From Candidatus Heimdallarchaeota archaeon (GTDB lineage: Archaea; Asgardarchaeota; Heimdallarchaeia; Heimdallarchaeales; Kariarchaeaceae), in assembly GCA_030149205.1 (NCBI GenBank), contig JASBSB010000007.1, forward strand, positions 422,473 to 486,472: DNA of 64,000 nt. Reading direction: 5' to 3'. Positions 23,814-51,272 of this stretch are shown here, piece after piece (positions within the stretch are counted from its first letter, which is position 1; every line of letters begins with the position of its first letter). Below the pieces are notes generated by a model, which was not told where the DNA came from, did no database searches, and saw only the letters and a list, made by a program, of their open reading frames with translations. The position numbers and the translations under genes are program-made.

Positions 23814-26800
23814 ATGAAAGATAACACCCCAACTAAAGTAATTTTTATTTCTCTGCTGTTCATGGCATTGCTAACAACAAATGTGTTTGCAAATGCCAGT
23901 CTCAGTACGAATATTACAGATCAAGTTAAGGTGTCTATGCAACAGGGAATGCATTACTACACCTACGACTCAAATAAAGTGGTCATATTTTATGACTATA
24001 AGGAGTCGTTGGCTGTTAGCACAGCAAAATCCTTGACTAGCTCTTTGAATCTCTTTACGCCGAATGCGATAGGAATTCCAATTGGTAGTCTTGATGTAAT
24101 AGAACCTATTCTGATGAAAAACAACTACAAAGCCGCAATTTTAGTTTTTCCCTCTTCCCCTTCGGGGATGAAAATTACCTCCCTTAGTGGATCGGTAAGT
24201 GAATACAGCTGGAAGACGGTCGCAAAATTCATAGAAAATAAAAGAGATCAGTTCAAAGGAACCAACTTTATTTTTGCTATGGGTAACACAATGCAGCTTG
24301 TCTCTCATATCTCAAATGTAGAGCGAATCTATGCTTCAAACGAGGAAGCTGTAGAGTCAGAACATATCTATGTTTACACGTTGTGGACTTTGGCAGATAT
24401 CTTTGAATCCGATGATGATGCACAATACAGGGCATTAGGTAAGGATCTAAGAAAAGCTACCCTCAAATATTTTGCTAACAATTTCAACAGGATTGCAGCC
24501 AGTAGCATATCTCCTCAGAATCCAATGGGGAAGGAATCAGATGCAACTGTTGAGGCTCGTAAAAAGAAGTTTTTTGATGACCATCAACCGGTGGTAGTAA
24601 AACAGGCTAGACCAGGATATATAATTGACCCCAAAACAAATCGAGAGGTGGATCCCGCAACAGGAAAACCCACCACTGATTATGGGATCGATATCTTTCC
24701 ACAAAACACTAGCACAGTAACAGATTTTATTTTGCAGCTCTTGCCGATTGGCAGTGGCTTAAGGGGGCCAGTAGGGGGAATAGTTGACAATCTTCTCTCT
24801 TATCTTTTCAATGAAATTGGAGGGGCCATCGGGCTTTCTAATGACACAGTCACACAGATATTCGATGTGATTACTCAGATCCCAGATCTTATTGCATCAT
24901 TCTCAAACCCCTCTGCAAGTGCCATAAAGGCATTGGTGGAAAAACTAAAACCTATGCTTCCAATTGGTGAAGAATTTTATCCATACATAAATCTCTTTAT
25001 CGATGGTCTCTTTCTCTTAAGAGGGAGCAAGGATGATATTGTTAATTTTATTCAACAGGCAGTCAGTCTATTAATCCCTGATTCGCTCTCAATTGGTTCA
25101 ATTAGTGTCAAGGCTCTTCTAAGCCAACTTACGACATTAGGAGCATCAGTTTTTGATAAAATCCAACAGGGAGGAAATGTATTAGATATCATATTTAGTG
25201 TTCTAAACGAACAGATTGTGGCTAATCTAACTGCTACAGTGATGGGAAATGGGACCGTATTTGGGTTATCTGCCCCAGAACTCACTAAGTTTATAAACAA
25301 GACAACAACAACAATTAATTTTGTTATCCAATACTTGTCATCAAAAAGTCTAAAAGACCTTGCATTTGAATATGGTGACAAATTGTTACGTTTTGCCTTC
25401 TCAGAATTTGGGTTGAGTGAAAACACCTCTGAAACCATTATTCTATCGTTAACCACCGTTTTAACTGCGATGGGTGTGATTAATGATCCAGATGTAAATC
25501 TTGAGAATCAAATAACTGAGATTCTTAAGCGTGTAACAAATTTGAATATTGACCTAATTAAAGAAAAGGCTAAGGATATACTTAAAGTAATCAGTGATGC
25601 GTCTGAGGGTAAATTTACCTCAATTTCAAATTTAAACACCAATCTTCAGCCTATTCTTGATACATTAGGTATTTCTACCAATATCAAAAACAGTCTTCGC
25701 GATTTGATTGAAATAATTGCTACTATCTCCAGCTCAAATCTCTCGTTTAGCTCTGTGAAGAAAGTTTCTTTAATGATCGCAGATTTTGCAACAAGCTTGG
25801 GATTAAACTCCCAATACAAAACCTTTGTAGGGCAGTTATTTGAGTCATTAACCAGGATCATTAACTTTGTCAAAAACCCACCAAAGCTTTCAGACCTCCT
25901 TAATCTCAATTTTGGAGGAGTCATTGACATTTATCATGAAATTAAAAACCTGTTTGATCTGGTTGTAAACTTTGTTAAAGGTGTTTTGCCGCCTGCTCCA
26001 ACCACTACCAATTCTGTATCACCTCAGGCAACCGGTCTGAGTAATTTAGCAAACAATCTCTTTGCAAACGCTTCAGAAATAATTGGTGTTGTATTTCAAG
26101 TTGTAAACTCTGTTCAGGGCAATTCTATGGAAGGCGTTATGCTCGCCCTTCTTCAAAGTTCAACTCAAATCTTGGGGAGCTTCCTCCCAGTTGATAATAT
26201 TCAACCAATTGTTGAGGTAACAAAGTATCTCTTCAGCACAATTGCTGGATTGAACACCACCATCTCAGTTGACCAGTTGATCAGTCAGATTCTTCCCCTA
26301 TTTCCATCTAGCTTACAATCAGGGGTCAAAACAGTCCTTGATATTATCTTTAGTATTAAGGATGTATTCACTAATGGACTTCAGACGTTAATAAACAGGT
26401 TATTGGAATGGATTTCTGGGAAGATATTTGGGCTAATTGATCAGCTACTTGGAGCGCTGAACCCCTCAGTTGATTCTTCAGGCATATCGATAAATTTTGA
26501 TGTGCCAATAGGGATCGGCAGTTTCTCACTGTTTACCATGAAGTTTCGGCTAGGTTTATCCTTTGGCTTTGAATTTGATAACGACGCCTTTGCCACCTTT
26601 ATTTCCGATATCATCTTTCGAGGGGCAAAGGTATTACAAGGGTTAGATGTTGGAGGTGTCTTCAAAAAACTTTTCAGCTTTATGTCTATCACACCAATCT
26701 TTGAAGCTGGATTTGAGTTAAGCACCTTTGGTTCTGGATCTCAAAGCTTCCTGAACTACATGCTAGCAGCACTTGGAGTTGAGCTTAACTTTTCTGGGGA

Positions 26801-29800
26801 AGGCTGGTTTAAACTCTTGCTTTTCAGCTTTAAAAATGGAGTATTCTCTCTGGATAACTTCTTTAAGGTGATTGAATGGGGCTTTAAGTTCACAATTGGA
26901 ATAAGCCGCACATTTACATTACTTGATTTTCTAACTGGTGGGGCCGGAGGAAGCCTAAATTCAATTGGACAATATATAGGTCTTGATGCAATTTCAATAA
27001 CGATTGCCTTTATTTTGACCCTCTCTATTGTGAAACGAGCAGCGACGGCGAACAAACCTGAGACTGGATCCATGACAATAACAATTGGAATAAACTTTAC
27101 AGTTTCACTAGGAATAGATATAACCATCGCGAGACTTCTCCTAAAGGGAACGTTAGAGGTGACCCTGACCCTACTACAGGATCTGGTGGCTCCGACACCG
27201 CTTCAGGTGTACATTGCGATTCAACTCGTGATTACTGTCACAATAGGTTTCCTGTTCTTCAACTGGAACTTTGATTTCAAATGGTCACCAGATGGTTTTG
27301 CACCGCCCTTGGGTAAGAATATCTCAGGAAACTCACCACAAGATGCTGTTAAGAAAGGGGCACTTGGTGGTGACACAGACAATGATGGTCTCTCAGATCA
27401 GTATGAAAACAGTACCTCTGGTCTTAAATTTAACAGCCCTGACAGTGATGGGGATGGATTAACAGATAAATTTGAGACACAGACATTAAAAACAGACCCA
27501 TCTAAAAAGGATACAGATGGTGATGGTTTGGATGACAATGTTGAATATTCACTCAAGACCAATCCATTAAAGGCTGATAGTGACTATGACCAGGTGTCTG
27601 ACTATAAAGAAACCACAATTTATGGAACTAACCCATTGTCTGCTGATACAGACCAAGATGGTTTGGATGATTACTATGAGATTAATCATGCTTGGAATAT
27701 AACTGGTGTTACTACCTCAGTTTCACAGATAAAAATTGGTGGAAAGTTCTATGATGATCATACAGATCCACTCAACCCAGATACGGATGGAGATGGGTTG
27801 CTTGACGGTCAAGAAGGTGAAAGAGGTGTCTATTACGGACCTCAGCTCACTGGAACAGCCAAAGATTATGGATACACCCCAGACCCACCATTGATTTTTA
27901 ATGGTGGATACACTCATCCACTGGATAATGACACAGATGATGATTCATATTGGCAGCTTTATGATGGCTCTATAGCCCCTGTTAGTTCTCCCTATATAAT
28001 GAACCTAAATGATTATGTGGAGACCCATGGGCTTGAGGTTGTACTTATAGATCCTCTTACTGGTGAACCTGAGGCTCCTAGATTAATAAGGACCAATCCA
28101 GTTAATCCAGATTCCGATGGTGACACAGGTGTAACAGCCTCACAAAGGAAAGTTCCTCCACCAGGGTTCTTCTTAAACTCTGATGGATATGAACTCGGTA
28201 TTGCACACACAGATCCACTAAATGGAGACACAGATCAGGACGGATTAATTGATGGTTTAGAAGGTATTCTTAGACCAGATTCTAACCACACAGATCCATT
28301 AAATCCTGACACAGATGGAGATGGGCTGGGTGACATGCAGGAAACACTCCTGGGGTTAAACCCAAGAGGTATAGATACAGATCATGATGGGGTAACAGAC
28401 AGTGATGAGTTCTTCAAATATGGAACAAACCCCTTCCTTAATGATACAGACTTTGATGGATTGGAAGACGGAGAAGAACTCTTCTTATATCACTCAAATC
28501 CCTTCATGTCTGACAGTGATGCCGATGGTCTCTCTGATTATGCAGAAGTCTGGAAATATTTCTCATCTCCTTCAGACGAGGACTCAGATAATGATGGACT
28601 CACAGATTATGAGGAAGTGATGATACATTATACAGACCCCTTTGTAGCAGACACCGATGGTGATGGACTTCTCGATGGTGATGAGGTTTTAGGGCTTCCA
28701 TTTACAGATTCATTGAACCGAACACACCTTGTCTTTACAGACCCAACTAAATGGGATACAGATGGTGATTCTTTGACAACCTTGGATCAGTATGGCAAAA
28801 TGAGTATGCCAATGTCCGATGGACAAGAATTTGCAATGGGTACAGACCCATCAAGACGAGATACTGATCTGGATGGAATTGAAGACGGATGGGAACTTTG
28901 GTTAGGAAAAGGTATAATCCCTGGAATGGATCCAATTAAGCTTGATCCACTAAATAATGATACAGATGGTGATGACCTCCTTGATGGGCAAGAAGTTGCT
29001 ATAATGAATATGAGTACACTTCTTAACCCCTACATAGGATTTACACTTGTCCGACCGTACAACACCTCAGCCACAAACCCAGATACAGACGGTGATCAAA
29101 TCCCTGATCATGTGGAACTGTTAAATGGAACCCGTCCAGATAATCCCGACAGTGACAACGATACATTGACAGATTATGAGGAAATTAATGTCTACAAGAC
29201 GGATCCAACACGAAATGACACAGATGGAGATGGACTGCTGGATCAAGAAGAGGTATTTGGATATCAGTTCCCCTCAAACACCAGTTCAGCTATCACCCTC
29301 CATGCATTGATAAGAACCGACGCTAACAATCCAGACAGTGACTTTGATCTGTTACCTGATGGGGCAGAGGTACATTTCTATAACACAGACCCAAGAAATG
29401 GGGATGTCAATGGAAATGGTATTGTTGATGGTATGGAAATTGATACAGACGGTGACGGACTCTATGATGGAGAAGAATTTATGGTCTACAAGACTGTTCA
29501 ATCACCTGATGGAGGTGGTGTACTTAACCCAGACTCAGATCATGATGGTCTCTTTGATGGGTTTGAAGTGTACCAAACCCTGACTAATGCATCTCGCTGG
29601 GACTCAGATAACGATACATATTCCGATGGACTTGAATTCTATTGTAACACAAACCCATTAGATAATTCAACAACACAATCAGAGATCAATGCCTGCTTTA
29701 CTGGGTTGGATAAGGTTGTAATTCTCTCACCAGCTCCAACAAAATATAGAACAAATAGTATACCTGTCATTGTATTTGATGCAACCAAGAATATGACAGC

Positions 29801-30440
29801 TATGTCTTACCAGTTCAGAGCTCATAATGGCACATGGAGTGGATCAGTTCCTATGACCCCCTCTGTTGGTAAACCTGGACAATGGGAAGGAGCTGCATTA
29901 GGCATCCCACTCAAAAATGGAACTTATGAAGTTAAAGTTACAATACAAAGACCTGATGGGACAACCTTTGAAAGGAAAAGACTTTTCTCCTTGTTACTTG
30001 GACCCACTTTAATTCAGGTACAAACCCCTGAGTCAAGGAGGTATGACTTCAACGAGTTTACCACTCCTTCTCTTCCAATAAAGGTAAAGGCTGGGTTGGA
30101 TTTCAATTCCACCTGGTATCGTATGAGAATGGAGAATGGGACAATTATGAAGGATAACACCACCCTTCAGTATGACTCAGGTCTTAGTGCCTACTATCAG
30201 GACAAATTCGAATTTCCAAAGTTACGTGGGACACACAATTACACCATTGAGGTTTTCGGGATGAAGACCAATGGACAGGTGTATGTCTCAGTGGTGAACT
30301 TTCAAATCAAAACCCCCACCATCATTGAAAATGTGGCTATTGTGGGTACAGGTGTTGCAGCAACCATAGGTGTAGGTGGTGGAACCATAATAGGTGTGAG
30401 AAAGGGCATCTTCAAGAATCCTTTCAAAAAGAGGAGTTAA
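23814..30440 (+). CDS. Giant (2208 aa) secreted surface protein: signal peptide, ~1100-aa novel Leu/Ile-rich helical N-domain, ~26 thrombospondin type-3 Ca2+-binding repeats, beta-sandwich domains, C-terminal TM anchor
   Basis: Signal peptide MKDNTPTKVIFISLLFMALLTTNVFANA. Tandem D.D.DG..D..E units (NPDTDGDGLLDGQE, SDSDADGLSDYAE, NDTDGDGLLDQEE, ...) from roughly aa 1150 to 1850. C-terminal Gly-rich TM 'VAIVGTGVAATIGVGGGTIIGV' plus basic tail KKRS. Confidence 0.8.
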   Translation: MKDNTPTKVIFISLLFMALLTTNVFANASLSTNITDQVKVSMQQGMHYYTYDSNKVVIFYDYKESLAVSTAKSLTSSLNLFTPNAIGIPIGSLDVIEPILMKNNYKAAILVFPSSPSGMKITSLSGSVSEYSWKTVAKFIENKRDQFKGTNFIFAMGNTMQLVSHISNVERIYASNEEAVESEHIYVYTLWTLADIFESDDDAQYRALGKDLRKATLKYFANNFNRIAASSISPQNPMGKESDATVEARKKKFFDDHQPVVVKQARPGYIIDPKTNREVDPATGKPTTDYGIDIFPQNTSTVTDFILQLLPIGSGLRGPVGGIVDNLLSYLFNEIGGAIGLSNDTVTQIFDVITQIPDLIASFSNPSASAIKALVEKLKPMLPIGEEFYPYINLFIDGLFLLRGSKDDIVNFIQQAVSLLIPDSLSIGSISVKALLSQLTTLGASVFDKIQQGGNVLDIIFSVLNEQIVANLTATVMGNGTVFGLSAPELTKFINKTTTTINFVIQYLSSKSLKDLAFEYGDKLLRFAFSEFGLSENTSETIILSLTTVLTAMGVINDPDVNLENQITEILKRVTNLNIDLIKEKAKDILKVISDASEGKFTSISNLNTNLQPILDTLGISTNIKNSLRDLIEIIATISSSNLSFSSVKKVSLMIADFATSLGLNSQYKTFVGQLFESLTRIINFVKNPPKLSDLLNLNFGGVIDIYHEIKNLFDLVVNFVKGVLPPAPTTTNSVSPQATGLSNLANNLFANASEIIGVVFQVVNSVQGNSMEGVMLALLQSSTQILGSFLPVDNIQPIVEVTKYLFSTIAGLNTTISVDQLISQILPLFPSSLQSGVKTVLDIIFSIKDVFTNGLQTLINRLLEWISGKIFGLIDQLLGALNPSVDSSGISINFDVPIGIGSFSLFTMKFRLGLSFGFEFDNDAFATFISDIIFRGAKVLQGLDVGGVFKKLFSFMSITPIFEAGFELSTFGSGSQSFLNYMLAALGVELNFSGEGWFKLLLFSFKNGVFSLDNFFKVIEWGFKFTIGISRTFTLLDFLTGGAGGSLNSIGQYIGLDAISITIAFILTLSIVKRAATANKPETGSMTITIGINFTVSLGIDITIARLLLKGTLEVTLTLLQDLVAPTPLQVYIAIQLVITVTIGFLFFNWNFDFKWSPDGFAPPLGKNISGNSPQDAVKKGALGGDTDNDGLSDQYENSTSGLKFNSPDSDGDGLTDKFETQTLKTDPSKKDTDGDGLDDNVEYSLKTNPLKADSDYDQVSDYKETTIYGTNPLSADTDQDGLDDYYEINHAWNITGVTTSVSQIKIGGKFYDDHTDPLNPDTDGDGLLDGQEGERGVYYGPQLTGTAKDYGYTPDPPLIFNGGYTHPLDNDTDDDSYWQLYDGSIAPVSSPYIMNLNDYVETHGLEVVLIDPLTGEPEAPRLIRTNPVNPDSDGDTGVTASQRKVPPPGFFLNSDGYELGIAHTDPLNGDTDQDGLIDGLEGILRPDSNHTDPLNPDTDGDGLGDMQETLLGLNPRGIDTDHDGVTDSDEFFKYGTNPFLNDTDFDGLEDGEELFLYHSNPFMSDSDADGLSDYAEVWKYFSSPSDEDSDNDGLTDYEEVMIHYTDPFVADTDGDGLLDGDEVLGLPFTDSLNRTHLVFTDPTKWDTDGDSLTTLDQYGKMSMPMSDGQEFAMGTDPSRRDTDLDGIEDGWELWLGKGIIPGMDPIKLDPLNNDTDGDDLLDGQEVAIMNMSTLLNPYIGFTLVRPYNTSATNPDTDGDQIPDHVELLNGTRPDNPDSDNDTLTDYEEINVYKTDPTRNDTDGDGLLDQEEVFGYQFPSNTSSAITLHALIRTDANNPDSDFDLLPDGAEVHFYNTDPRNGDVNGNGIVDGMEIDTDGDGLYDGEEFMVYKTVQSPDGGGVLNPDSDHDGLFDGFEVYQTLTNASRWDSDNDTYSDGLEFYCNTNPLDNSTTQSEINACFTGLDKVVILSPAPTKYRTNSIPVIVFDATKNMTAMSYQFRAHNGTWSGSVPMTPSVGKPGQWEGAALGIPLKNGTYEVKVTIQRPDGTTFERKRLFSLLLGPTLIQVQTPESRRYDFNEFTTPSLPIKVKAGLDFNSTWYRMRMENGTIMKDNTTLQYDSGLSAYYQDKFEFPKLRGTHNYTIEVFGMKTNGQVYVSVVNFQIKTPTIIENVAIVGTGVAATIGVGGGTIIGVRKGIFKNPFKKRS

Positions 30441-33400
30441 GTGATTAAAATGAAGAAATTTACAATTTCAATACTTTCTGTTATCTTGCTTCTTATGCTG
30501 GTCTCTAACCCATTGGTAAGCATCCATGGATTGAGCAGCTCAGATGTAACCTCAAAACCAGAACTTACTCCTTTGAAGGACTGGAAAGATGGCATAGTGA
30601 AGGATAACGGGACAAACCTAAATCCAAACGGAGTCTACGATCAAAACACAGATCTTGGAAAATTTCTGTCAGATCAGAAATCGACATTTGATAAAAAATG
30701 GGATCCATGGCTCACTCAAGGTGCAGTTCATGCTGTGGCATCAACTGCTGACGGAGACATGATGGCAATAGCAACTGGATATCTCTATGATAACCAGATA
30801 CATGTGTACAGATACAACCACAAAACACTGCAATATGATCACGTATGGGAAGTAGGCGGTGGAGTGTTTCAGTCTGATGTATTTACATTGGATTTTGCAG
30901 ACACAGACTACAACAATCTTACTGAGATAATTGCCGGTGGAAATGACGGAAGAATCTATGTGTTTGAGCAAAGGCATCTTTATGATCCAGTTACAAATAT
31001 GGAAAACATGTTTGATCTGGTTTGGACAAGCCCTCGTCTTGGAAGAATCTTTAGTGTGACTGTGGACGACACAGATATGGACTTCCGGAAAGATATTGTG
31101 ATTGGAACTGGTGATACAGTCAGATGGTATGAATATGATAACCACTCCAACTATCCCTTCACAAAGGATCACTGGATGACATTCAGAGAGGTAAGCACCT
31201 TTAAAGCAAACTCACAGATTACCGCCTTAGGTGTGTCTGATGTAAACAGCAACGGGTTGAAAGAGGTTGCAGTGGGTCAAAAGTCTGGAGAGATTCAACT
31301 GCTTGAGAATGCTGGGGTTGTAATCCCCATCAACGGGAAAAAATTCCCCTATTATCAAGATAACACCTATAGACAAATCTGGAGCTCGAATAACACCCTT
31401 AGAAGAGGTATAAGCTCTATGAGTGGTGGAGACCTGGATAATGATGGGTATCGAGAACTCTTGATTGCAGTTCAAGGTCAAGGAGCCTATGTTCTTGATC
31501 AATTAGACGGGCAGCTTGGCACATACAGAATCGAAAGACCATTTGCACCATGGGAATCCAACATGACTGCGTTTTATTCATTGGATTACTATATAGACTC
31601 AATGGTCAACTCATCTAGCATGTTCAATGGAACGTGGCTACCACTTGCCTCTGCTAATGTGTATTACAAGAACATTACAAACAGCTATCAGGAGCCATTC
31701 AACATAAGTAAATATGTCTATGATAACTATCCCTACAACTCAGAGACTGTCAGAGTTCCTGATAATAAATACACAACCTTGGATGGAACCAAGGTTCCAG
31801 GAAAAGCAGCATGGGCAGTTTATGATTTTGGGCATGATGAAGAGGCAGCTGGTAATGGCGTGCCTACTCAGTATGACCTATCAATACTTCTGCACTCTAC
31901 AAGCACAGCAGTTAATCCAACAGATATTGAGATCTCAATTTCGGCAGATAATGTAAACTTTCACAAGATTGATTCTAAGTACATTAAGTTTAACTCAAGC
32001 GTTCCATTGAATACTTACTACCGTGCATTCAATGTTGAGGTTGATCCAACCCTGATAAATGCATCTTTGGATTATTACAGATATATTAACATCACGGTGT
32101 TTAGTAAAAAACTGGTCATAGATTCAATGAAGACCCTCTCAATAAATAACCCGATTTATGATGCACAATCAACAGAGGTTGGTCCTCTTCTCTTCAAGGG
32201 AGAGACTGTCGCAGAGAAGGCAGGGTTTATTGGAACAATTGACGGTACAATCTTGGCCGTTACCTGGAACCCAACCATGAAACGATACACAATTTCATGG
32301 GACAGTTGGGTAAATGAAAGATTTAAGCTGAAGAAAAACATCTTTGATATGGAGCTGGTTCATAAGTCTGGTAGATTCCCATCTATCATCGGAAACAAGT
32401 TCCTTGCTTCGATTGCTGATTTTACATCTGGGTTAATCAATCCTTTCAATGGCTTCACAGAGAAAGTAGTGTCCTATTCTGCAGAAAACTTCTATAACTA
32501 TCAACAGGAGCCTCGAGCAGAGTTTGTTATCTCAACTGATAGCGGGAGATTATTAATTTACAGACAGCAGGCAGATAACTCACCTCTGGTTTTAGATAAA
32601 GCCCTGTCTAAGCAAATGTTTGACACACCCATGGTGTATTCAAGTAAACTTGCAAACAATTTGACAACGGTGATGCAATACATAAATCAGAGGAAGGCTC
32701 TAGCTAATGGACCAAAATATTTTACGGTTTCATTCGTTCCGTTAGAAAATGGTATTATGGATGGATTTCTTGGAACCCAATTAAACATAATCAACACACC
32801 GTTTTTGATGCTCTTAGGTGAATGGACTGGTTCATTAGGTGATCTACAAGCACAATTGACAGGAGTCCCTGATTCACCCGTTCAAAATAATGATCTGACC
32901 ATGTGGTATGTATACAACTTCCCATTAGGGAACGCTGCCTGTGATCCAGCATTAGAACAATGTACAACCGTTGTACCTTATATGAATGACCGTACAAATG
33001 CGCCTTACAGTCTGAAGGACTTGGATCTGACTGGACAAATGCTTGGATATTTCAGACAATCCAGTTGGATGCCAAAAATTGCTGGCGGTGATTTTATTGG
33101 CTCCTCTTCGAAAGATCTCGTTCTAACAAATGGAAAATTGATGCTGTTGGAGGTAAGTTATTCGGCAGACCCGAATTATATTCCCACTAAACCCAAAAAT
33201 CAATTCGTAGCTGGGCCATCAGTTTGGGGATCGTTTAGCCCCACAAGTCAGATTATCTACACAGCTAACCCCTCCTATTTCTCACAAATCAATGAGATGT
33301 CTAATGGAAGGCAATGGACGAATCCATATCCAGTGGACTTTGATAATGATGGTGATCTTGATCTTATTCTTAGCTTTGCAAGGTATGATACAACCACGTT

Positions 33401-36400
33401 CACAGTTGATCTGAAGAAGTACGGAATGACATATTTCGAGAACGCAGGAACCCGAAACAATCCAATCTGGATTGAAAGGAAGAAGGCTGTGACAAACAAT
33501 GACCCAGATTCAAATCTTAGAGTTAACTTGTACACAGATCCAGTTTTCATTAACGATAACTATGATCTAAAGTTTGGGTATTATCCTACAGTTGGATACC
33601 ATCCTTACTTTAAGACAGGTTTACCTTCCAGATTGGTCATGTTCAATCTCCCAAGCATCTCTGCCGGAGTGTTTGACGGAAAGTTAAACTCCTTCAAGCT
33701 TAATTATGAACCTGGAACCTCACTGATGGTGGCAACCTACCCAGAGACAAAAAGACTTGATATAAATCTCATGGACTATAATATGGGGTTGCTTGGGCAG
33801 ACTAACTTTGGGTACCATATCTTTGAAAGTTGGAACAATGGTCGAGAGCTAAATAACTGGACTCTCTCCCTCAGTACAGCAGATATGGATCAAGATGGAA
33901 AGAATGAGGTAATTGTTGGTGATTTTAACAACAATGCGTATGTATTTGAACATCTCACAAACAACACCTACAAGAGAGCCTACAAGACACCTGATATCAA
34001 TCGAACAGTGGTCACAGATCAAAGTCCATATGCCAGTAACCTATTTACGGGTATTAGTGGAAACTTTAACAGGACAATCTTTAACCACGCAACATTTACG
34101 ATGGCAGGGGTAGACTTAAACAATAACACACTCCAAGAATTCATCATTGCAACTGACTCTGTCTTGTATGTATTTGAATCCTATCTTACAAGAGCAGGAA
34201 GGATAAGGGATGACTCATACAGGTTAATCGCACAGATTGATCTTTATTCCCTTCCAGCCCTCTCAAGGATGGATCGTAGCTTGATCAAGGTCAGCTCACT
34301 GACATGGGCAAACGACATCACCAATGATGGCAACAGAGAATTAGTTGTCGCTGTTGGTCCCGCATTGTTAATTTTTGATATTCAATCACTTAATCATGAC
34401 ACAAGCCTTGCCTTTGTAAAACAGGTGTTTATGAATAGATTAGACTCAAATCTGTTCAACTGGAATGAAATTTTCTTCAAAGACACCTACAATGCCACCG
34501 GAAAGTACAACATGCCAGGAAACTACCTGATATCATTGAATCAGGTAATCTCTTCAGTCCTTGTTGAAGACATCAACAAGAATGGAAAGATGAATATAGT
34601 CATTGCAGGAAAAGATCTTGATACAGCTAAGCCTATAAGGGACGGCTTCATCAGAATCTATGAATGGACTGGTGTGAACTTTGATCAGATTATTGCTCCT
34701 GAGGTGTTTAAAAAGACAACCCAGTTCAATATGATTACTGATCTAGAGACAGATGACGCAGACCATGATGGTTTAACAGAACTAATAATTGGACATCAAA
34801 ATGGAATTGATATCTATGAGGTTACGGGTAGTAACACAGTTGAATATCGTGAGACAATCACCTCGAACCCTCATTATCAAGTGCCAAAGCATAATTATCT
34901 AGGTTTGGGAAGAACTCCCACCACATTCACAAACGCAAAGGATGTAGTGCTACTTTCCAATGGGACTCTATTGATGGCATATGTTGTACAAGTGACCAAA
35001 GGAAACTTTGAGATAAGGGTTGCAGGATCAAACGATGATGGAGCAACTTGGATCCAATATGGTGCAATAACCTATTCTGGAACAGCATCTGCGAGCTATC
35101 CTGGTGCTTTGGTTGCAATCGAAAGTATAGACCTATTGATCAAAGGTGGATTATTGTGGTTATCTTTTGCGGAAAGACGCAGTGACACACCTACTACCGA
35201 TGTGGCTGTGTTTTACGTAATTAGAAACCTACAGTTCAAAACATCAAACACCGCATACTTTGTTAGTGCAACCTCAGTAACACGAAACAGTGAGCAATCT
35301 GCCTCACCACAAATGTTTAACTTTCCAAATGCATCTACTACAGAGGTTGGGTTTGTTTACTTTAACTTCCAAAACTCAAGCTTATGGTTCTTAAGAGCAG
35401 ATACAGCCTATGCAGGGATTTTTGGAACATACTTTTCCGCAAGCACAAGAGTCCTATGGGCTAACGGGTCAGTTTTAGGGGAAAAATTCCTTGTTCACTC
35501 ACTCAGCGTCTATGATCAACCTAGAGGAAACTCACTCGATTTCGCATTTGCTGGATACCCCCGAAACGAATCCCTCTCACTTGCAGTGAACCTGTACTAT
35601 GTGTCTGTGGATATATTTCGAGCTTCTAGCTGGATGTTTAACTTTACAAAACAACCAACCAAGGTGTTACAGGGTAACCTGCCAATTAAGTTCCCATCTA
35701 TTATTCGAATGCAGGATACTGGGGCATTACTCATCTCCTTTGAGCAGCTATCCCTGAAGCCATTTGGTGGACTTTATGCTGCTTGGTCAAATGATCTTGG
35801 AACCTCATGGAATGGACCATATTCTATGACTCATCCTTATGGTTTGGATCTCCCTCTACTCACAGCATTACCGACCCCATCCAAAGAATCCTACAGAGTT
35901 GGAACATATGATGGCAGAATCATGCTTGATTTCTTTGATGTCAGAAGACCTGTCCTTGTACCTACAAAAGGAAGTGGATTTACTCAAGTTTATAATGTGT
36001 ACTTCACCACAAACCTGAGGAGAGAGGGTTCTATTGGGTATTGTGCTTCTTACACCTTCAATTTTGGGGATATTGCACAAACCATCTCTGGCACCTGTGA
36101 TCCATACTCAGGCACTTCCAGGGTTTTGGCTTCTTTCCACAATCCGTGGAGTAACTTCACCACGTATTCCCTGAGAGGAGTTACTGATCTTACAGTTGGG
36201 GACACAGATAATGATGGTAGACATGAGATACTTGCACTTAGCGGAAATCAGGCATATCTGTATGAATTTGCACACAACAGTAAGACATTCATTAGACATG
36301 TTGAGACCTGGATATCTGATCCATATGATCAGCAACTACGTAAAGGTGCAATCTCAGATGCAAACGGAAATGGTATCCCTGAAATTATTCTCGAAACAGC

Positions 36401-39173
36401 AAGGGGTGTTGTAAACTCTTTTGAGTTGGTCAAAGCCAACAAAGAGGCACCAAATCTGAAGTATCCAATACTTGACGCCACAATCTCTACAACCGCAGGG
36501 ATGAATAATTTAGTTCGTGAGATAATCCCAGTGGATGTAAACGCTGATGGTGTGGATGATATACTTTACAACACTCAGAATGGTGAACTAGTTGCAATTA
36601 ACGGTAAGGACAACACACTCATCTATAATGTGTTAAGTCCTTCACTGCCTCTAAGGTCAACGAGTCATGCAATATTTAACGATGTGAATCTTGTCCTTAT
36701 CTCTCACAAGGCGACAGGAAAGGCAGAATTTGTTGTTATGCCATATAACAACCTTCTGTATATCTACAAGTTGGATGGAACCTATGTGGGGTCCAAGATA
36801 CTTGGTATCAATGGAACAGACTTCATTTCAGGGATACAGGCGATAAACTTAGATAACTCAGGTTTTGATGAGCTCGTTGTATCTGTCTCAAACGGAACAA
36901 TCGTTGCCTATGATATGTCAAATCTTGTGGTTAGATTCTCTGTTCCCAGCAGTAAAAGCTTCATCACAAATGAATACATTGAGACCTTTAGAGTTGCCCA
37001 CTATCTGAGTAATTCCAGCTTCAGTCTTGTAACAGTAACCAACAATGGTTTCTTTGAGATGTTTGACCTCACAACATTAACGTCTGTCTGGACAAAGCAA
37101 ACAGCTGTCTCATTTGGTCGTATGGATGTGTCAACCTCTACCGACTGGAATGTCCTAAATGTGGGAGATTTCAATGGTGATGGGTTAGATGATTTGGCAG
37201 GAGGTCTTAATACCACAATCGTCCTCAAAGGTTCCAACGGTGACCAGCTCTGGAACCAAACTAACTCAAATCAAGTAATTCAAAGTGAGGCAATTGTTGA
37301 GGACATTAACGGAGATGGTATCGTCGATTTTATCATCACCTATTACTCCTCTTTAACACCAAACGCTTTGATAATGAAAGCTGTCTCTGGATTAACAGGT
37401 ACTGTGCTTTGGTCTTACCAACTTAAAGATCAGGCTGGACTCGTGATTCCAGAATCATTTGTCTCATCTTTACTTGCCCCTGGTAAGAGGTTAATAACCG
37501 CTGGACTGTATGCCTTCGATTCCTATGGCTTAGTGAGTTCTGCAGAAACTGGACAGGTGATGCTTGGAGTCAAGAACCCCATTTCTCTGCTCAGTTCTGC
37601 ACTTCTGGAGAAAGGTCAAGCAGAGCCAAAATTTGTCACTGGTGATCTCAATGGGACAGTCAGAATATACTCAATCTATGATGGTACCCCACCAGTCAAC
37701 CGTGTAAAAACACCTCAGCTTCAAAAAACACCATTCATCAGAGTGGGTTCTGATTTCACAGAGCGAACCAAATTCTTTGTACAGGATGTTTTTGGAGGAG
37801 ATGGGATTGATGACATATTTGTGGTCGATGATAATTACATTGGTGGTGCAGATACAAACAGACTCCTCAATGACCCAAGCTATAACACAGTTGAATGGTC
37901 TAAGGATCTCAAATTCAGTGGGAAGCTGTTAACTGCCATTCACGGTGACTTCAACAAGGATGGGAAAGCTGAAATTGTGGTAGCATTTGAAAATTACTGG
38001 ATGTCCGTTGATATGAGAACTGGCTCAGTTCTCTGGAACAAAACACTTCCAATCAGCTCTGGGAATATTGCACTCTCAATGTCTTTACAGAATGCATCTC
38101 TCAACAAAAACTTGCCAGGAACCCAAATTGCATTCTCTCTGGTTGAGAAAAACCCAACCTCAGGAGACAACATTACCTCCTTTGGGTATATTAACCCTGC
38201 TACAGGTGATCTATTGGATCTGTACTTCTTCACTGATTTCAAGAACCCCTCATTCACACTGGTTGATATTGACAAAGATGGATACGCTGAGTTTGTTGGA
38301 GCAATCAACCATCAGACAAACCCACTGGTAAACCGATATGTCATTTACCAGATTGACCAGGTAACTGGAAAGTTCATCATCATCAAAGATGCATACGTAA
38401 CAGGATATCCTCCCATCAGTCAAGTCATTGGTGGTGAGTTTGATCTGAGTAACACCAAAAGAGAGTTCACATTCGTTTTTGACTACTCTAGAATCAAAAT
38501 TCCATTCCCAATGTATGATTTCTCAAGAGTTCCATCCATCATGTTTACTCTCACAGCAGACCTGACCACCAAGGTGCTTCAGGCAACCAACAACACCATT
38601 GGTGTGGCACCCTTTGGTGGTGAAGCCCGACGCTATATGCTGACTGATTACAACAAGGATGGACTTAATGAGGTTATCATTCAGACCGGATTTGGAGACC
38701 TTTATCAGATACAATATGGCAATTCTGGAATTTACATCAAAACTGGTGGAAAAATTGCAAGTGTGGCAGTGCCCTACGCAGAGACACCTTTCCTTGTTGG
38801 AAATTTCTTTGCTGGTGTATCCAATGCAATGGCTGTGGTCATAAGTAGCGATGCAATGTCTCTCTATGATAATGCGAAACTTGACCCAACTGCAACGCCA
38901 AAGGGAAGTGTGGTATTAGCGATTGACACTATTCAGGATATCATCCCTGGGCACTATGACAAAGATACTATTACCGATATAATGGTGATCAGTAAGGCTG
39001 GATATGTGTGGGTGGTAAACTCAGTTAACCTCAGTCCACTTCAGCTAAACGAAAAAGGCATAGTAAAACCTGAACAGCAAAGCACAGTAACAGACAGAGT
39101 TGAAGTCATACCTGGGTTAATGCTTACTATCTTTGTGATGATCATTATCCTGAGAAGAAAAAAGAAGAACTAG
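30441..39173 (+). CDS. Giant (2910 aa) secreted integrin-alpha-like protein: more than a dozen FG-GAP/VCBS beta-propeller repeats plus a BNR (sialidase-like) propeller and a C-terminal TM anchor
   Basis: Signal peptide. Recurring 'D.N.DG..E/D..(I/V)G' FG-GAP Ca-loop motifs (DLDNDGYRELLIAV, DFDNDGDLDLILSF, DMDQDGKNEVIVGDF, DTDNDGRHEILAL, DVNADGVDDILYN, DFNGDGLDDLAGG, DINGDGIVDFIIT, DFNKDGKAEIVVAF, DIDKDGYAEFVGA, DYNKDGLNEVIIQ). BNR motifs 'SNDDGATWIQ' and 'SNDLGTSWNG'. C-terminal 'IPGLMLTIFVMIIIL-RRKKKN'. Track start is GTG at 30441; ATG at 30450 (MKKFT) is more likely. Abuts the upstream stop codon. Confidence 0.8.
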   Translation: MIKMKKFTISILSVILLLMLVSNPLVSIHGLSSSDVTSKPELTPLKDWKDGIVKDNGTNLNPNGVYDQNTDLGKFLSDQKSTFDKKWDPWLTQGAVHAVASTADGDMMAIATGYLYDNQIHVYRYNHKTLQYDHVWEVGGGVFQSDVFTLDFADTDYNNLTEIIAGGNDGRIYVFEQRHLYDPVTNMENMFDLVWTSPRLGRIFSVTVDDTDMDFRKDIVIGTGDTVRWYEYDNHSNYPFTKDHWMTFREVSTFKANSQITALGVSDVNSNGLKEVAVGQKSGEIQLLENAGVVIPINGKKFPYYQDNTYRQIWSSNNTLRRGISSMSGGDLDNDGYRELLIAVQGQGAYVLDQLDGQLGTYRIERPFAPWESNMTAFYSLDYYIDSMVNSSSMFNGTWLPLASANVYYKNITNSYQEPFNISKYVYDNYPYNSETVRVPDNKYTTLDGTKVPGKAAWAVYDFGHDEEAAGNGVPTQYDLSILLHSTSTAVNPTDIEISISADNVNFHKIDSKYIKFNSSVPLNTYYRAFNVEVDPTLINASLDYYRYINITVFSKKLVIDSMKTLSINNPIYDAQSTEVGPLLFKGETVAEKAGFIGTIDGTILAVTWNPTMKRYTISWDSWVNERFKLKKNIFDMELVHKSGRFPSIIGNKFLASIADFTSGLINPFNGFTEKVVSYSAENFYNYQQEPRAEFVISTDSGRLLIYRQQADNSPLVLDKALSKQMFDTPMVYSSKLANNLTTVMQYINQRKALANGPKYFTVSFVPLENGIMDGFLGTQLNIINTPFLMLLGEWTGSLGDLQAQLTGVPDSPVQNNDLTMWYVYNFPLGNAACDPALEQCTTVVPYMNDRTNAPYSLKDLDLTGQMLGYFRQSSWMPKIAGGDFIGSSSKDLVLTNGKLMLLEVSYSADPNYIPTKPKNQFVAGPSVWGSFSPTSQIIYTANPSYFSQINEMSNGRQWTNPYPVDFDNDGDLDLILSFARYDTTTFTVDLKKYGMTYFENAGTRNNPIWIERKKAVTNNDPDSNLRVNLYTDPVFINDNYDLKFGYYPTVGYHPYFKTGLPSRLVMFNLPSISAGVFDGKLNSFKLNYEPGTSLMVATYPETKRLDINLMDYNMGLLGQTNFGYHIFESWNNGRELNNWTLSLSTADMDQDGKNEVIVGDFNNNAYVFEHLTNNTYKRAYKTPDINRTVVTDQSPYASNLFTGISGNFNRTIFNHATFTMAGVDLNNNTLQEFIIATDSVLYVFESYLTRAGRIRDDSYRLIAQIDLYSLPALSRMDRSLIKVSSLTWANDITNDGNRELVVAVGPALLIFDIQSLNHDTSLAFVKQVFMNRLDSNLFNWNEIFFKDTYNATGKYNMPGNYLISLNQVISSVLVEDINKNGKMNIVIAGKDLDTAKPIRDGFIRIYEWTGVNFDQIIAPEVFKKTTQFNMITDLETDDADHDGLTELIIGHQNGIDIYEVTGSNTVEYRETITSNPHYQVPKHNYLGLGRTPTTFTNAKDVVLLSNGTLLMAYVVQVTKGNFEIRVAGSNDDGATWIQYGAITYSGTASASYPGALVAIESIDLLIKGGLLWLSFAERRSDTPTTDVAVFYVIRNLQFKTSNTAYFVSATSVTRNSEQSASPQMFNFPNASTTEVGFVYFNFQNSSLWFLRADTAYAGIFGTYFSASTRVLWANGSVLGEKFLVHSLSVYDQPRGNSLDFAFAGYPRNESLSLAVNLYYVSVDIFRASSWMFNFTKQPTKVLQGNLPIKFPSIIRMQDTGALLISFEQLSLKPFGGLYAAWSNDLGTSWNGPYSMTHPYGLDLPLLTALPTPSKESYRVGTYDGRIMLDFFDVRRPVLVPTKGSGFTQVYNVYFTTNLRREGSIGYCASYTFNFGDIAQTISGTCDPYSGTSRVLASFHNPWSNFTTYSLRGVTDLTVGDTDNDGRHEILALSGNQAYLYEFAHNSKTFIRHVETWISDPYDQQLRKGAISDANGNGIPEIILETARGVVNSFELVKANKEAPNLKYPILDATISTTAGMNNLVREIIPVDVNADGVDDILYNTQNGELVAINGKDNTLIYNVLSPSLPLRSTSHAIFNDVNLVLISHKATGKAEFVVMPYNNLLYIYKLDGTYVGSKILGINGTDFISGIQAINLDNSGFDELVVSVSNGTIVAYDMSNLVVRFSVPSSKSFITNEYIETFRVAHYLSNSSFSLVTVTNNGFFEMFDLTTLTSVWTKQTAVSFGRMDVSTSTDWNVLNVGDFNGDGLDDLAGGLNTTIVLKGSNGDQLWNQTNSNQVIQSEAIVEDINGDGIVDFIITYYSSLTPNALIMKAVSGLTGTVLWSYQLKDQAGLVIPESFVSSLLAPGKRLITAGLYAFDSYGLVSSAETGQVMLGVKNPISLLSSALLEKGQAEPKFVTGDLNGTVRIYSIYDGTPPVNRVKTPQLQKTPFIRVGSDFTERTKFFVQDVFGGDGIDDIFVVDDNYIGGADTNRLLNDPSYNTVEWSKDLKFSGKLLTAIHGDFNKDGKAEIVVAFENYWMSVDMRTGSVLWNKTLPISSGNIALSMSLQNASLNKNLPGTQIAFSLVEKNPTSGDNITSFGYINPATGDLLDLYFFTDFKNPSFTLVDIDKDGYAEFVGAINHQTNPLVNRYVIYQIDQVTGKFIIIKDAYVTGYPPISQVIGGEFDLSNTKREFTFVFDYSRIKIPFPMYDFSRVPSIMFTLTADLTTKVLQATNNTIGVAPFGGEARRYMLTDYNKDGLNEVIIQTGFGDLYQIQYGNSGIYIKTGGKIASVAVPYAETPFLVGNFFAGVSNAMAVVISSDAMSLYDNAKLDPTATPKGSVVLAIDTIQDIIPGHYDKDTITDIMVISKAGYVWVVNSVNLSPLQLNEKGIVKPEQQSTVTDRVEVIPGLMLTIFVMIIILRRKKKN

Positions 39174-50339: not shown

Positions 50340-51272
50340 ATGAGGGTTGTCAGAGCCTATGCACCTGCATCATTGGCAAACTTTGCTGTAGGCTTTGATA
50401 TCATTGGAGCAGCAATACAAGGCATGGGAGATGAGGTGACCTTAGAGAAGGCAGAAGATGGGGTAAAAATTACCTCAATTTCTGGAGATGCAACCATCCC
50501 CATGAATCCTGAGAAAAATACAGCAGGAAAGGCTTTACTTGAATTTATTGAGCTCAACAATTTAGAATATGGGTTTAATATGTCTATCAAGAAGGGAATT
50601 CCTTTGGCTTCTGGATTGGGTGGGAGTGCAGCCTCTGCAGTAGCTGCAACAATTGCAGCAGATAGACTTTCAGGATTGAAACTTTCAAAAGAAACCCTTT
50701 TAAGGATTTCACTCAGTGGTGAGCTAATTTCAAGTGGTTCTGTTCACACTGACAATGTGGCTCCTTCCCTTTATGGGGGAATCACAGTTAGTCTTAAAGA
50801 TAAAAATCAAAACTACATCATCCAGAAAATACCCAGCTTAACCTCGCTGAAAATGGTAATGATTCATCCTCATCTAGAAATCTCAACCAAGGAGGCACGA
50901 GATATTCTAAGACAGGATGTTCCTCTTAATCTTCATGTTCAACAATCCATGAATCTTGCTGCTTTTATTATCTCAGTCTATACTGCTCAGATAGATCTAT
51001 TAAAAAAGACCTTTGATGATTTGATAATTGAACCTCAGCGTGCCTCTCTAATTCCAGACTTTAGTCAAATTAAATCAGTTTGCCAAAACTCTGGTGCAAT
51101 AGGGTGCTCAATCTCTGGTGCTGGTCCAACAATGTTTGCTGTATGTGATAATGCTGAGGTAACCCAAAAGATTGAATCTTCTCTTAAAGAACTTAAGACC
51201 TCTGTGAAACTTGATGTATGGACAACAAATATAGATACAATAGGTGCAAGAATTTTGGAGGTTAAATCATGA
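50340..51272 (+). CDS. thrB: Homoserine kinase (GHMP kinase family)
   Basis: 'RAYAPASLANFAVGFD' N-terminus and GHMP ATP-binding motif 'PLASGLGGSAASAVAA'. Directly upstream of threonine synthase with a 4-nt overlap. Confidence 0.75.
   Translation: MRVVRAYAPASLANFAVGFDIIGAAIQGMGDEVTLEKAEDGVKITSISGDATIPMNPEKNTAGKALLEFIELNNLEYGFNMSIKKGIPLASGLGGSAASAVAATIAADRLSGLKLSKETLLRISLSGELISSGSVHTDNVAPSLYGGITVSLKDKNQNYIIQKIPSLTSLKMVMIHPHLEISTKEARDILRQDVPLNLHVQQSMNLAAFIISVYTAQIDLLKKTFDDLIIEPQRASLIPDFSQIKSVCQNSGAIGCSISGAGPTMFAVCDNAEVTQKIESSLKELKTSVKLDVWTTNIDTIGARILEVKS

Follow-up and report, generated by a model that had tools for sequence, protein, structure and literature searches.

Extracellular proteins built from tandem β-propellers can be read as receptors, adhesins, enzymes or structural elements of the cell envelope. 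The locus described here, which encodes a chain of FG-GAP-type propellers combined with a sialidase-fold domain in a Heimdallarchaeota genome, raises the question of which of these descriptions fits the protein, and whether it acts alone.

Gene structure and start codon

In silico analysis of the window (the whole 64,000-nt stretch of DNA analysed) revealed an uninterrupted open reading frame (ORF) on the + strand at 30441-39173, with its stop codon at 39171-39173. The GTG at 30441 is the first codon past the TAA (30438-30440) of an upstream ORF in the same frame, and the ATG at 30450, which gives MKKFTISILSVILLLMLVSNPLVS and 2,907 aa, is the likeliest start of the propeller protein. The public protein P0001/P0107 (P0001 being the NCBI version) is 100% identical to the propeller protein, and 2,907 aa is also the length in the independent gene call P0107, a member of the same 90% cluster. 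The ORF of 2910 aa reported by the first-pass annotation is thus real, but the shorter product is the likelier one. The two starts differ by three signal-peptide residues only. A putative Shine-Dalgarno-like motif lies 13 nt ahead of the ATG and 4 nt ahead of the GTG. The scans of the window for tRNA genes and Rfam families gave no matches.

30450..39173 (+): coding sequence of the multi-propeller protein, 2,907 aa (ORF list, translation, 100%-identical public protein, 106 colinear homologues)
30433..30436 (+): GGAG, putative Shine-Dalgarno-like motif, read from the sequence within the 3' end of the upstream ORF

Membrane anchoring

The computed topology signals define a type-I membrane-anchored protein that is almost entirely extracellular. 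The anchoring noticed at first pass was borne out by a hydrophobic signal at the N-terminus and a helix at the C-terminus, followed by a short basic tail.

30450..30524 (+): signal peptide or signal anchor, aa 1-25; MKK, then a 15-residue hydrophobic core (hydropathy scan)
39102..39170 (+): C-terminal membrane helix, aa ~2885-2901, with the six-residue tail RRKKKN (hydropathy scan)

All homologues inspected end in a helix and 5-8 basic residues, none of them with GFFKR, and in fused homologues aa 1-25 correspond to the second of the two helices in a membrane hairpin. The shortness of the cytoplasmic tail, with its six residues, speaks against a receptor that signals on its own. A PGF-CTERM/archaeosortase signal, considered for the 'IPGL' ahead of the helix, was rejected, as no NCBIfam match was obtained and the motif is not conserved.

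Propeller architecture and calcium loops

The ectodomain (~2,850 residues) strings together about five β-propellers, namely about four FG-GAP-type regions and one BNR propeller, in place of the two or three propellers originally counted. Structure models, built from 30-sequence alignments, span 1,872 of the 2,907 residues; the AF2 models contain propeller blades, in agreement with the β-propeller fold expected at first pass, and the computation supports propeller folds for the modelled part. Two further propeller regions (aa 1904-2860) are predicted from profile matches.

30723..32309 (+): N-terminal FG-GAP-like propeller, aa ~92-620; six confident modelled blades, Ca loops at aa 264 and 328
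31599..32144 (+): inserted β-sandwich, aa ~384-565; modelled as ~11 strands that separate blade 5 from blade 6
32310..33074 (+): variable region, aa ~621-875; homologue coverage falls, pLDDT <50 for much of it, no Pfam match
33075..34871 (+): second FG-GAP propeller, aa ~876-1474; ~seven blades in AF2 model m7650e7cab5aa, Pfam FG-GAP and FG-GAP_3
34893..36149 (+): six-bladed BNR/sialidase-fold propeller, aa ~1482-1900, without the conserved arginine triad
36159..37709 (+): third FG-GAP/PQQ(BamB)-like propeller region, aa ~1904-2420 (Pfam, family profile, blade HMM)
37767..39029 (+): fourth FG-GAP propeller region, aa ~2440-2860 (Pfam FG-GAP and FG-GAP_3; blade HMM with five positions)

No other part of the family proteins is as well conserved as the N-terminal propeller module. 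In the model, five of its blades precede the inserted domain and one follows it. The inserted β-sandwich may be a CBM32/discoidin-like, carbohydrate-binding domain; this assignment is tentative because of marginal scores, its profile matching a CBM32 domain (5zu6) at E 0.026 only and Pfam F5_F8_type_C being matched by one member in 18 (E 1.6e-5). The variable region behind it may comprise a seventh blade and short helices. The second propeller, with Ca loops at aa 963, 1145, 1289, 1374 and 1436 and a β-rich insertion at aa ~1020-1130, shows six blades by the blade HMM in 16/16 close relatives, as well as many invariant residues.

Behind the BNR propeller, the third region carries Ca loops at aa 1918, 1970, 2029, 2240 and 2285, its aa 1918-1980 are the best Pfam FG-GAP_3 stretch, and the blade HMM gives 7-8 positions. 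The family profile matches BamB at aa 2084-2394 (E 5e-7, almost the whole BamB chain aligned), and both ITFG2 and the integrin alpha-V propeller are matched in this region at E ~1e-3 to 1e-4; Pfam PQQ_2 reaches 18.6 bits on the propeller protein (cut-off 27.6). The fourth region (Ca loops at aa 2500, 2606 and 2733) is the least conserved part and aligns at full length in the 16 closest relatives only. Single-sequence phmmer against the PDB gave no matches, and profiles were needed for them; the best ITFG2 match by profile search against PDB sequences has E 3e-9. Foldseek with a two-domain model retrieved mainly tandem-propeller proteins (DDB1, SF3B130, Elp2, GH74) at poor global TM-scores.

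The claim of more than a dozen calcium-loop motifs was confirmed, all of the quoted ones being present. A regular-expression search of the whole propeller protein found 13 strict loops (D-x-[DNS]-x-[DN]-G-x(2,3)-[DE]) and 16 loose ones, compared with 0.10 and 1.5 expected by chance from residue shuffling; none of 2,000 shuffles reached the observed counts. The proposed Pfam check gave the same picture, both FG-GAP_3 (E 2.5e-34; 118.1 bits, cut-off 26.9; eight stretches) and FG-GAP (E 2.2e-16; 59.7 bits, cut-off 22.1) being above their gathering scores, with FG-GAP matches in six of the ten segments searched separately. From what is known of the family, the D-x-D/N-x-D/N-G loops would be expected to bind calcium and to stiffen the blades. 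N-glycosylation sequons are not enriched, with 37 observed and, by our own estimate from residue composition, ~34 expected.

The BNR/sialidase-fold propeller

Both BNR/Asp-box motifs pointed out at first pass are present and conserved:

35028..35051 (+): Asp box 1, SNDDGATW, aa 1527-1534 (regular expression; W 93% conserved)
35787..35810 (+): Asp box 2, SNDLGTSW, aa 1780-1787 (regular expression; W invariant in 106 sequences)

By chance 0.04 such motifs are expected, and two were reached in 2 of 2,000 shuffles. Both sites read SxDxGxTW in the family consensus. The family profile matches sialidases at E 3.7e-12 in the search against PDB sequences. The protein's own BNR domain scores 14.8 bits with Pfam BNR_2, below the cut-off of 31.4, and 13 of 21 aligned relatives match this model at E≤0.01 (best 1.3e-12).

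In the 106-sequence alignment of the BNR domain no column has ≥80% R/K and no FRIP-like motif is found; the lack of a conserved basic residue indicates the lack of the arginine triad. The sialidase fold proposed initially is therefore present, in six-bladed form, but the domain is probably not a sialidase. Compared with GH33 sialidases and the GH93 exo-arabinanase, the Asgard domain has neither the arginine triad nor FRIP, and it is embedded in a giant non-enzymatic scaffold. Three of the five acidic positions conserved in the family are replaced here (I1557, A1712 and N1714), so that a role of these residues elsewhere may not apply to this protein. In the family as a whole, this domain counts as one of the less well conserved parts.

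Distribution and conservation of the family

The protein had been called unusual for an archaeon, which is misleading: Asgard archaea carry it as a rule, and they are the only group in which it was found. All 106 homologues are colinear, and all named ones are Asgard. Among 185,579 species genomes 71 loci were found, all archaeal, and those with a lineage label are Asgard except four (labelled Bathyarchaeota or Nitrososphaerota). The architecture is colinear over ~2,600-3,300 aa in the Heimdall, Loki, Thor, Odin, Njord, Hermod and Hod lineages. This restriction to Asgard archaea, together with the colinearity across lineages, goes beyond the first-pass annotation. The whole N-terminal core (N-core, aa 79-620) is matched by only ~100 clusters among 1.84 billion representatives (named members Thor, Loki and Odin), whereas parts of its profile are matched by 4,835 representatives at E≤1e-3.

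Among the closest relatives, N-core identity is 64% in Heimdallarchaeota MAGs, and overall identity is 41-44% to Kariarchaeaceae MAGs and to mislabelled 'Methanobacteriota' MAGs. Public annotations of the relatives are generic ('VCBS repeat-containing', 'PQQ-binding-like', 'BamB family'), and nothing on the propeller family was found in the literature on Asgard FG-GAP, VCBS, BBSome or thrombospondin proteins.

Across the lineages named above, column identity of the N-core is 53% on average, which is unusually high for an adhesin meeting variable targets. Such conservation is easier to reconcile with an internal partner that is itself conserved than with external ligands.

The upstream TSP3-repeat partner gene

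A second large surface protein is encoded immediately upstream:

23814..30440 (+): partner gene, 2,208-aa surface protein with a signal peptide and a C-terminal membrane helix plus basic tail

The partner consists of a conserved N-terminal stretch of ~1,150 aa without a family match and ~800 aa of TSP3-type calcium repeats (Pfam TSP3_bac, E 4.4e-34), and it has an Ig-like region towards the C-terminus. Matches to the CglD gliding adhesin and the MtsC/MtsD cohesion proteins of Myxococcus are sub-threshold, all of them far below the NCBIfam cut-offs. The gene lies directly upstream of the propeller gene in 51/51 orthologous loci, including loci of Loki, Odin, Heimdall and Njord, and the two are fused in 4 of 44 loci. 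In L. ossiferum the orthologues are NEF87_004126 and the gene preceding it. In some Thorarchaeota both proteins form one polypeptide of 4,300-4,900 aa, and the partner can be aligned along its entire length with the N-terminal half of each of four fused homologues (P0083, P0026, P0058 and P0073). The junction of the fusions is a membrane hairpin, i.e. a helix, 60-80 basic residues as a cytoplasmic loop, and a second helix.

This conserved and sometimes fused partner is likewise new relative to the first-pass annotation. The computed synteny and fusion show a functional linkage rather than physical contact. Fusion through a hairpin places both ectodomains side by side outside the same membrane, so that the partner and the propeller protein most likely form one complex.

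The combination of TSP3 repeats and an FG-GAP propeller recalls thrombospondin and integrin of animals. In contrast to the animal ligand-receptor pairs, the two Asgard proteins share one membrane as their anchoring site and in some cases form a single chain, which points to association in cis and not to a ligand meeting its receptor. The RGD motif is absent from both the propeller protein and the partner.

Comparison with integrins and other propeller proteins

The label 'integrin-alpha-like' can be retained for the FG-GAP repeat only. Integrin alpha and the Asgard protein have in common FG-GAP repeats with calcium-binding hairpins, type-I topology, a large ectodomain and a short tail; integrin alpha works with a second membrane protein, and the Asgard protein presumably does likewise. 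However, integrin alpha is composed of one FG-GAP propeller and legs, with GFFKR and a beta-I/VWA partner, whereas the Asgard protein has four FG-GAP-type regions, neither legs nor GFFKR, and no beta-I/VWA gene in its neighbourhood. The leg domains (thigh, calf-1 and calf-2; Pfam Integrin_alpha2) gave no match at E≤1 for the whole protein or at E≤0.1 for its segments. GFF[KR]R is absent from the propeller protein and from the last 80 residues of 106/106 homologues, and no VWA/Integrin_beta gene is present among the neighbours, the conserved neighbour being the TSP3-repeat protein and not a beta subunit. The sequence similarity to integrins is also weaker than that to ITFG2 or BamB.

The eukaryotic FG-GAP-like proteins ITFG2 and kaptin (KICSTOR) and BBS2/BBS7 (BBSome) reside in the cytosol, each as a subunit with a single propeller and different domains at the C-terminus. 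The Asgard protein is extracellular, and its matches to them cover two or three blades only. For Beta-prop_BBS7 (46 bits) the best stretch is model positions 205-288 of 299, and for BBS2_Mid positions 74-107 of 108. The Pfam search of the whole protein found no other BBS domains and no full-length BBS propeller match, as would be expected of a BBSome subunit. As the PDB contains few bacterial FG-GAP structures, the rankings of the ITFG2/BBS matches say nothing on ancestry.

The prokaryotic FG-GAP/VCBS proteins (PF01839, PF13517) share with the Asgard family the repeat, the D-x-D/N-x-D/N-G loop, the seven-bladed fold and the extracellular location, and tandem propellers are common among them. 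The differences relate to (i) a fixed order of five propellers; (ii) a strongly conserved N-core, found in Asgard archaea only, with the signature GGYLYDNEIH...YVFEQRH; (iii) an embedded sialidase-fold propeller; (iv) a β-sandwich inserted in a propeller; (v) an obligate TSP3-repeat partner gene.

Alternative explanations

Taken as a true integrin alpha homologue, the protein would pair with an integrin-beta-like subunit into a heterodimeric receptor for adhesion and signalling, its cytoplasmic tail transmitting the signal; the failed leg-domain and GFFKR tests refute this membership, and we give it next to no credence. It could also be a generic, fast-evolving VCBS/FG-GAP adhesin with no special Asgard link, the upstream gene being merely another clustered surface protein. 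FG-GAP/VCBS multi-propeller proteins are indeed common in bacteria, and both the 4,835 partial matches to the N-core profile and the generic public annotations of the relatives agree with this. A colinear architecture in seven Asgard lineages, the N-core identity, and a partner gene that is present in every orthologous locus and fused in several are together the opposite of what a fast-evolving accessory adhesin would show, which leaves this explanation a slim chance. A small but real probability is assigned to a surface-anchored carbohydrate-active enzyme, in which the BNR domain would be a GH33-/GH93-like hydrolase, the β-sandwich a CBM and the other propellers spacers, perhaps acting on extracellular polysaccharides together with the neighbouring β-helix protein. 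Against it stand the missing conserved Arg/Lys and FRIP motif, the replaced acidic positions, the lower conservation of the BNR domain, whereas the non-enzymatic N-core is conserved best, and a downstream neighbour that is not kept in other lineages.

The remaining alternative concerns the gene boundary itself. The ORFs at 23814-30440 and 30441-39173 share a frame with one stop codon between them, and other lineages have fused versions, so the TAA might reflect a sequencing error or be subject to read-through, both ORFs then being one gene for a protein of ~5,100 aa as in Thorarchaeota. Such a joining was judged very unlikely. The stop sits at a topologically neutral split, after a helix and basic tail and before MKK and a signal helix, and the cytoplasmic loop typical of the fusions is missing at this junction. 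GGAG stands ahead of the second ORF. Furthermore, 40/44 loci are split, and split genes elsewhere are out of frame or overlapping (14-nt gap in Odin, 19-nt gap in Heimdall CP070695, 8-nt overlap in Njord).

Proposed role

The reading preferred here, which we hold to be fairly probable as a whole, is that the two proteins form a surface complex which is stabilised by calcium, serves in coating or adhesion and possibly binds glycans. The propeller chain would stand outside the Asgard cell, anchored in the membrane and with its blades stiffened by calcium, as the second half of a two-gene module whose first half would be the membrane-anchored TSP3-repeat protein, rich in calcium sites. Side by side on the same membrane, both ectodomains would join into one two-protein complex, and this complex may serve as a structural and adhesive element of a non-crystalline Asgard surface coat, in which lectin-like domains would make contact with glycans, whether of the cell's own envelope, of partner cells or of substrates. 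The 'receptor or glycan-binding adhesin' suggested at first pass is compatible with this in its glycan-binding or adhesive part, but not as a self-contained signalling receptor. A bolder version, in which the pair is the main building block of an amorphous non-S-layer coat that mediates calcium-dependent syntrophic cell-cell or cell-substrate contacts and, in addition, the N-core is, on the archaeal side, sister to the eukaryotic propellers of ITFG2, kaptin, BBS2/7 and integrin alpha, is considered doubtful.

Models of eukaryogenesis depend on intimate contact of the Asgard surface with partner bacteria. Asgard archaea in culture reportedly have no ordered S-layer, and their surface bears unidentified 'complex surface proteins' or an amorphous coat of protein. 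In three cultured strains, cryo-ET showed a layer of unidentified 'complex surface proteins' in place of an S-layer, and predicted S-layer candidates were not detected by proteomics (PMC9834061; PMC11284389; bioRxiv 10.1101/2025.11.06.686947).

The pair described here is a candidate for this coat of the cell surface and is better described in this way than as an integrin or an active sialidase. The 'integrin repeat' statement reportedly goes back to Liu et al. 2021, as quoted in citing papers; the loose label 'integrin repeats in Asgard' can now be corrected, the FG-GAP blade being shared and the integrin-specific features not. The module of ~5,000 residues is present in every orthologous locus examined, was found in Asgard archaea only and is far more conserved than ordinary adhesins, and is for these reasons a concrete candidate for the Asgard surface layer, offering experimenters a specific target to tag, deplete or average in tomograms.

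Gene start and topology

Two giant genes lie one behind the other in the window:

23814-30440, +, partner: TSP3-repeat protein of 2,208 aa, made up of a signal peptide, about 1,150 residues without a family match, TSP3-type calcium repeats over about 800 residues, and finally a helix and a basic tail at the C terminus
30433-30436, +, GGAG upstream of the target start
30441-39173, +, target: open reading frame as listed, encoding the multi-propeller, membrane-anchored protein

The partner reading frame is in the same frame as that of the target and terminates with TAA at 30438-30440, so that the listed GTG start of the target is merely the next codon. Initiation at ATG 30450, from which residues are numbered here, gives a protein of 2,907 aa beginning with MKKFTISILSVILLLMLVSNPLVS..., a typical signal sequence. 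An independent gene call for P0107, a member of the same 90% cluster, has an equal length (2,907 aa); the NCBI call of the target (P0001, 2,892 aa) begins within the signal helix. At the C-terminal end a hydrophobic helix (aa ~2885-2901) is followed by RRKKKN, and the protein is predicted to consist of a big ectodomain, a single membrane helix and a cytoplasmic tail of six residues. Between the two in-frame giants lie one TAA and three codons (30438-30452). The shared frame looks coincidental rather than a sign of programmed read-through, because in other lineages the genes overlap or are separated by an out-of-frame gap.

Propeller architecture of the target

The first-pass annotation described an integrin-alpha-like chain of FG-GAP propellers with a BNR/sialidase-like propeller. 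Every calcium-loop motif that it quoted was found in the target, as were its two Asp boxes, at aa 1527 and aa 1780. The D-x-D/N-x-D/N-G loops number 13 in the strict and 16 in the loose form, against shuffle expectations of 0.10 and 1.5 (counts equalled by 0 of 2,000 shuffles), and the two Asp boxes compare with 0.04 expected by chance (2 of 2,000 shuffles reach two). Together with the Pfam matches to FG-GAP_3 (E 2.5e-34, eight stretches) and FG-GAP (E 2.2e-16), these results bear out the observation as a whole. In segment-wise Pfam scans, FG-GAP matches appeared at aa 200-480, 850-1500 and 1900-2870; aa 450-880 gave no match and aa 1480-1910 a sub-threshold BNR_2 match only.

The profile of the conserved N-terminal propeller part (N-core, aa 79-439), whose mean column identity across phyla is 53%, matches ITFG2 (E 3e-9), kaptin (2e-3), BBS2 (3e-3) and integrin alpha-6 (0.03). 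The full-length family profile matches BamB (E 5e-7), aligning target aa 2084-2394 with nearly the entire BamB chain, and also ITFG2 and the integrin alpha-V propeller. A blade HMM derived from loops of the target itself marks 12 FG-GAP-like blade positions in the C-terminal 970 residues (seven at aa 1926-2291, five at aa 2510-2840), and 22 positions over the whole protein in 16 full-length relatives. Pfam FG-GAP matches also extend over these 970 residues, and the three lines of sequence evidence together point to two further propellers in this region. The architecture as a whole can be put forward with considerable confidence.

The target belongs to the FG-GAP/VCBS propeller class, showing each of the three defining features that were tested. 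Identity with integrin alpha was rejected: leg domains and the GFFKR motif were looked for in the target and neither was found, and the conserved partner is no beta subunit. The earlier interpretation is thus borne out in part. The matches to Beta-prop_BBS7 (46 bits) and BBS2_Mid (28.3 bits) exceed the Pfam cut-offs, each spanning just two or three blades; they reflect FG-GAP-like blades in common, and BBSome membership was likewise rejected.

Sialidase-fold domain

The sialidase-fold propeller (aa ~1482-1900) is real, since a 21-sequence profile of the domain matches PDB sialidases (E 3.7e-12), BNR_2 is matched individually by 13 of the 21 aligned members (best 1.3e-12), and the family consensus at both Asp boxes is SxDxGxTW. 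The fold and the Asp boxes are common to the target and the sialidase/BNR proteins, but the catalytic residues are not. In the 106-sequence alignment of the domain no column reaches at least 80% Arg/Lys and no FRIP motif was found; judged from sequence, the arginine triad defining sialidase catalysis is absent. Acidic residues are retained in the family at positions equivalent to D1498, 1557, 1712/1714 and E1765; the target itself carries I1557, A1712 and N1714. The domain is probably non-catalytic and perhaps lectin-like. The beta-sandwich inserted in the N-terminal propeller (aa ~384-565) shows a weak profile match to a CBM32 domain (E 0.026), and one of 18 members matches Pfam F5_F8_type_C there (1.6e-5); its reading as a carbohydrate-binding domain is tentative.

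Family and distribution

A protein search with the target yielded 106 homologues, 1,666-4,887 aa long and mostly in the range of 2,200-3,400 aa. All those with a named source are Asgard (Heimdall, Kari, Hod, Loki, Thor, Odin, Njord, Promethearchaeota), including one MAG mislabelled 'Methanobacteriota'. They align colinearly with the target: all of them conserve the N-terminal ~650 aa and aa 850-1500, the middle domain keeps its size, and full-length alignment of the C-terminal part is limited to the 16 closest relatives. A genome scan with two N-core signature peptides, A[LVF][GA]GGYLYD and DGx[VIL]YVFEQ, covering 185,579 species with one genome apiece, returned 71 loci, all archaeal; those with a named lineage are Asgard, save four records, two of them labelled Bathyarchaeota and the other two Nitrososphaerota. 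Run exhaustively against 1.84 billion cluster representatives, the N-core HMM matched about 100 clusters over the entire core. Lower-ranked matches were partial and multi-stretch only, as expected of generic FG-GAP repeats; ten further clusters have named members from Thor, Loki and Odin.

A paralogue group of ~1,950 aa (L064-L071, L075; P0160-P0172) shares the N-core at ~30% identity and is present alongside the main pair in Thor and Loki genomes. Asgard genomes seem to encode several multi-propeller surface giants with differing lectin modules.

The TSP3-repeat partner

The partner's repeats match TSP3_bac (E 4.4e-34), and its NCBIfam matches (CglD, MtsC, MtsD) are all sub-threshold. Residues 1-1150 (23814-27260) gave no Pfam, NCBIfam or PDB match and show conservation between Asgard lineages (tblastn E as low as ~1e-141). 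By eye, the N-terminal half contains a long, seemingly helical stretch of low complexity; aa ~1000-1150 are very hydrophobic and appear beta-rich by eye, helix-like in a hydropathy scan of fused homologues.

The partner lies directly upstream of the target orthologue in Lokiarchaeum ossiferum, an Odinarchaeota MAG, Heimdallarchaeota CP070695 and a Njordarchaeia MAG, with gaps of -8 to +19 nt. By tblastn, its N-terminal part was found at a fixed distance in 51 of 51 orthologue-level loci (those whose upstream sequence spans 4.5 kb or more), and upstream of 0 of 6 paralogue-level loci. Uninterrupted fusions occur at 4 of 44 loci, three labelled Thorarchaeota and one 'uncultured archaeon'. Four fused proteins of 4,348-4,887 aa (P0083, P0058, P0026, P0073) carry a target homologue as their C-terminal half. 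Their N-terminal halves align with the partner, from its aa 8 to ~2,024-2,072 in P0083 and P0058, starting at aa 38 in P0026 and at aa 217 in P0073. At the junction of the fusions, a membrane helix leads into 60-80 residues, most of them basic, and then into another helix. From this membrane hairpin it follows that the split between partner and target falls in a cytoplasmic loop, with both ectodomains facing outward from the same membrane.

Neighbouring genes

The gene content of the window is archaeal and Asgard-like, including aIF2-alpha and HEAT proteins besides the genes below; GC content is 0.33-0.42.

39294-41792, downstream neighbour of the target: NosD/beta-helix surface protein of 832 aa, its right-handed beta-helix repeats (E 1.5e-39) lying between a signal peptide and a C-terminal membrane helix
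42291-43940: 549-aa protein with an endonuclease/exonuclease/phosphatase domain, then fibronectin type III domains
44010-45649 and 50340-51272: adjacent aconitase X large and swivel subunits, and a GHMP-family kinase nearby
45716-49113, -: LRR protein (555 aa), TFB/TFIIB and Ras-family small GTPase (Ras E 1.3e-32), in a row
62394-63515, -: WD40 propeller protein of 372 aa that weakly matches many WD40 propeller families of eukaryotes

Domain content suggests that the four consecutive genes at 23814-43940 encode surface or secreted proteins. The NosD/beta-helix gene does not keep its place next to the target in Loki, Odin or Njord; a similar beta-helix domain is fused at the C terminus of a few homologues (P0017, P0018, P0022, P0024; ~3,300 aa). 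Aconitase X and the GHMP kinase are consistent with the archaeal modified mevalonate pathway (phosphomevalonate dehydratase). The LRR protein and the GTPase are among the 'eukaryotic signature' genes typically found in Asgard archaea. The WD40 protein is apparently cytosolic and unrelated to the target. In CP070695, an FG-GAP giant of ~3,144 aa with C-type lectin and lamin-tail domains (L003, 22521-29462) sits two genes downstream of the orthologous pair; its Odin relative is annotated 'lamin tail domain-containing'.

Proposed role

The computed features of the target are export and anchoring signals, a propeller chain, an arginine-less sialidase fold, restriction to one lineage, and obligate pairing with the TSP3 protein, to which it is sometimes fused. 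By analogy with known FG-GAP and TSP3 repeats, both proteins would bind many calcium ions, which would rigidify them. Synteny, fusion and topology suggest that they form one cell-surface complex, and a physical association is likely. The strong conservation of the N-core is easier to reconcile with a conserved internal contact, be it to the partner or to the envelope of the cell itself, than with external ligands that vary. Glycan binding is suggested by the sandwich insert and by the sialidase fold without arginines.

No S-layer is present in cultured Asgard archaea, whose cells bear unidentified 'complex surface proteins' or an amorphous coat of protein (PMC9834061; PMC11284389; bioRxiv 10.1101/2025.11.06.686947). 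The pair is a plausible candidate component of this coat, the chances of a coat or adhesion role being about even. The target represents a lineage-defining new variant within a known protein class; it is of interest chiefly for its conserved partner and for the Asgard cell surface.
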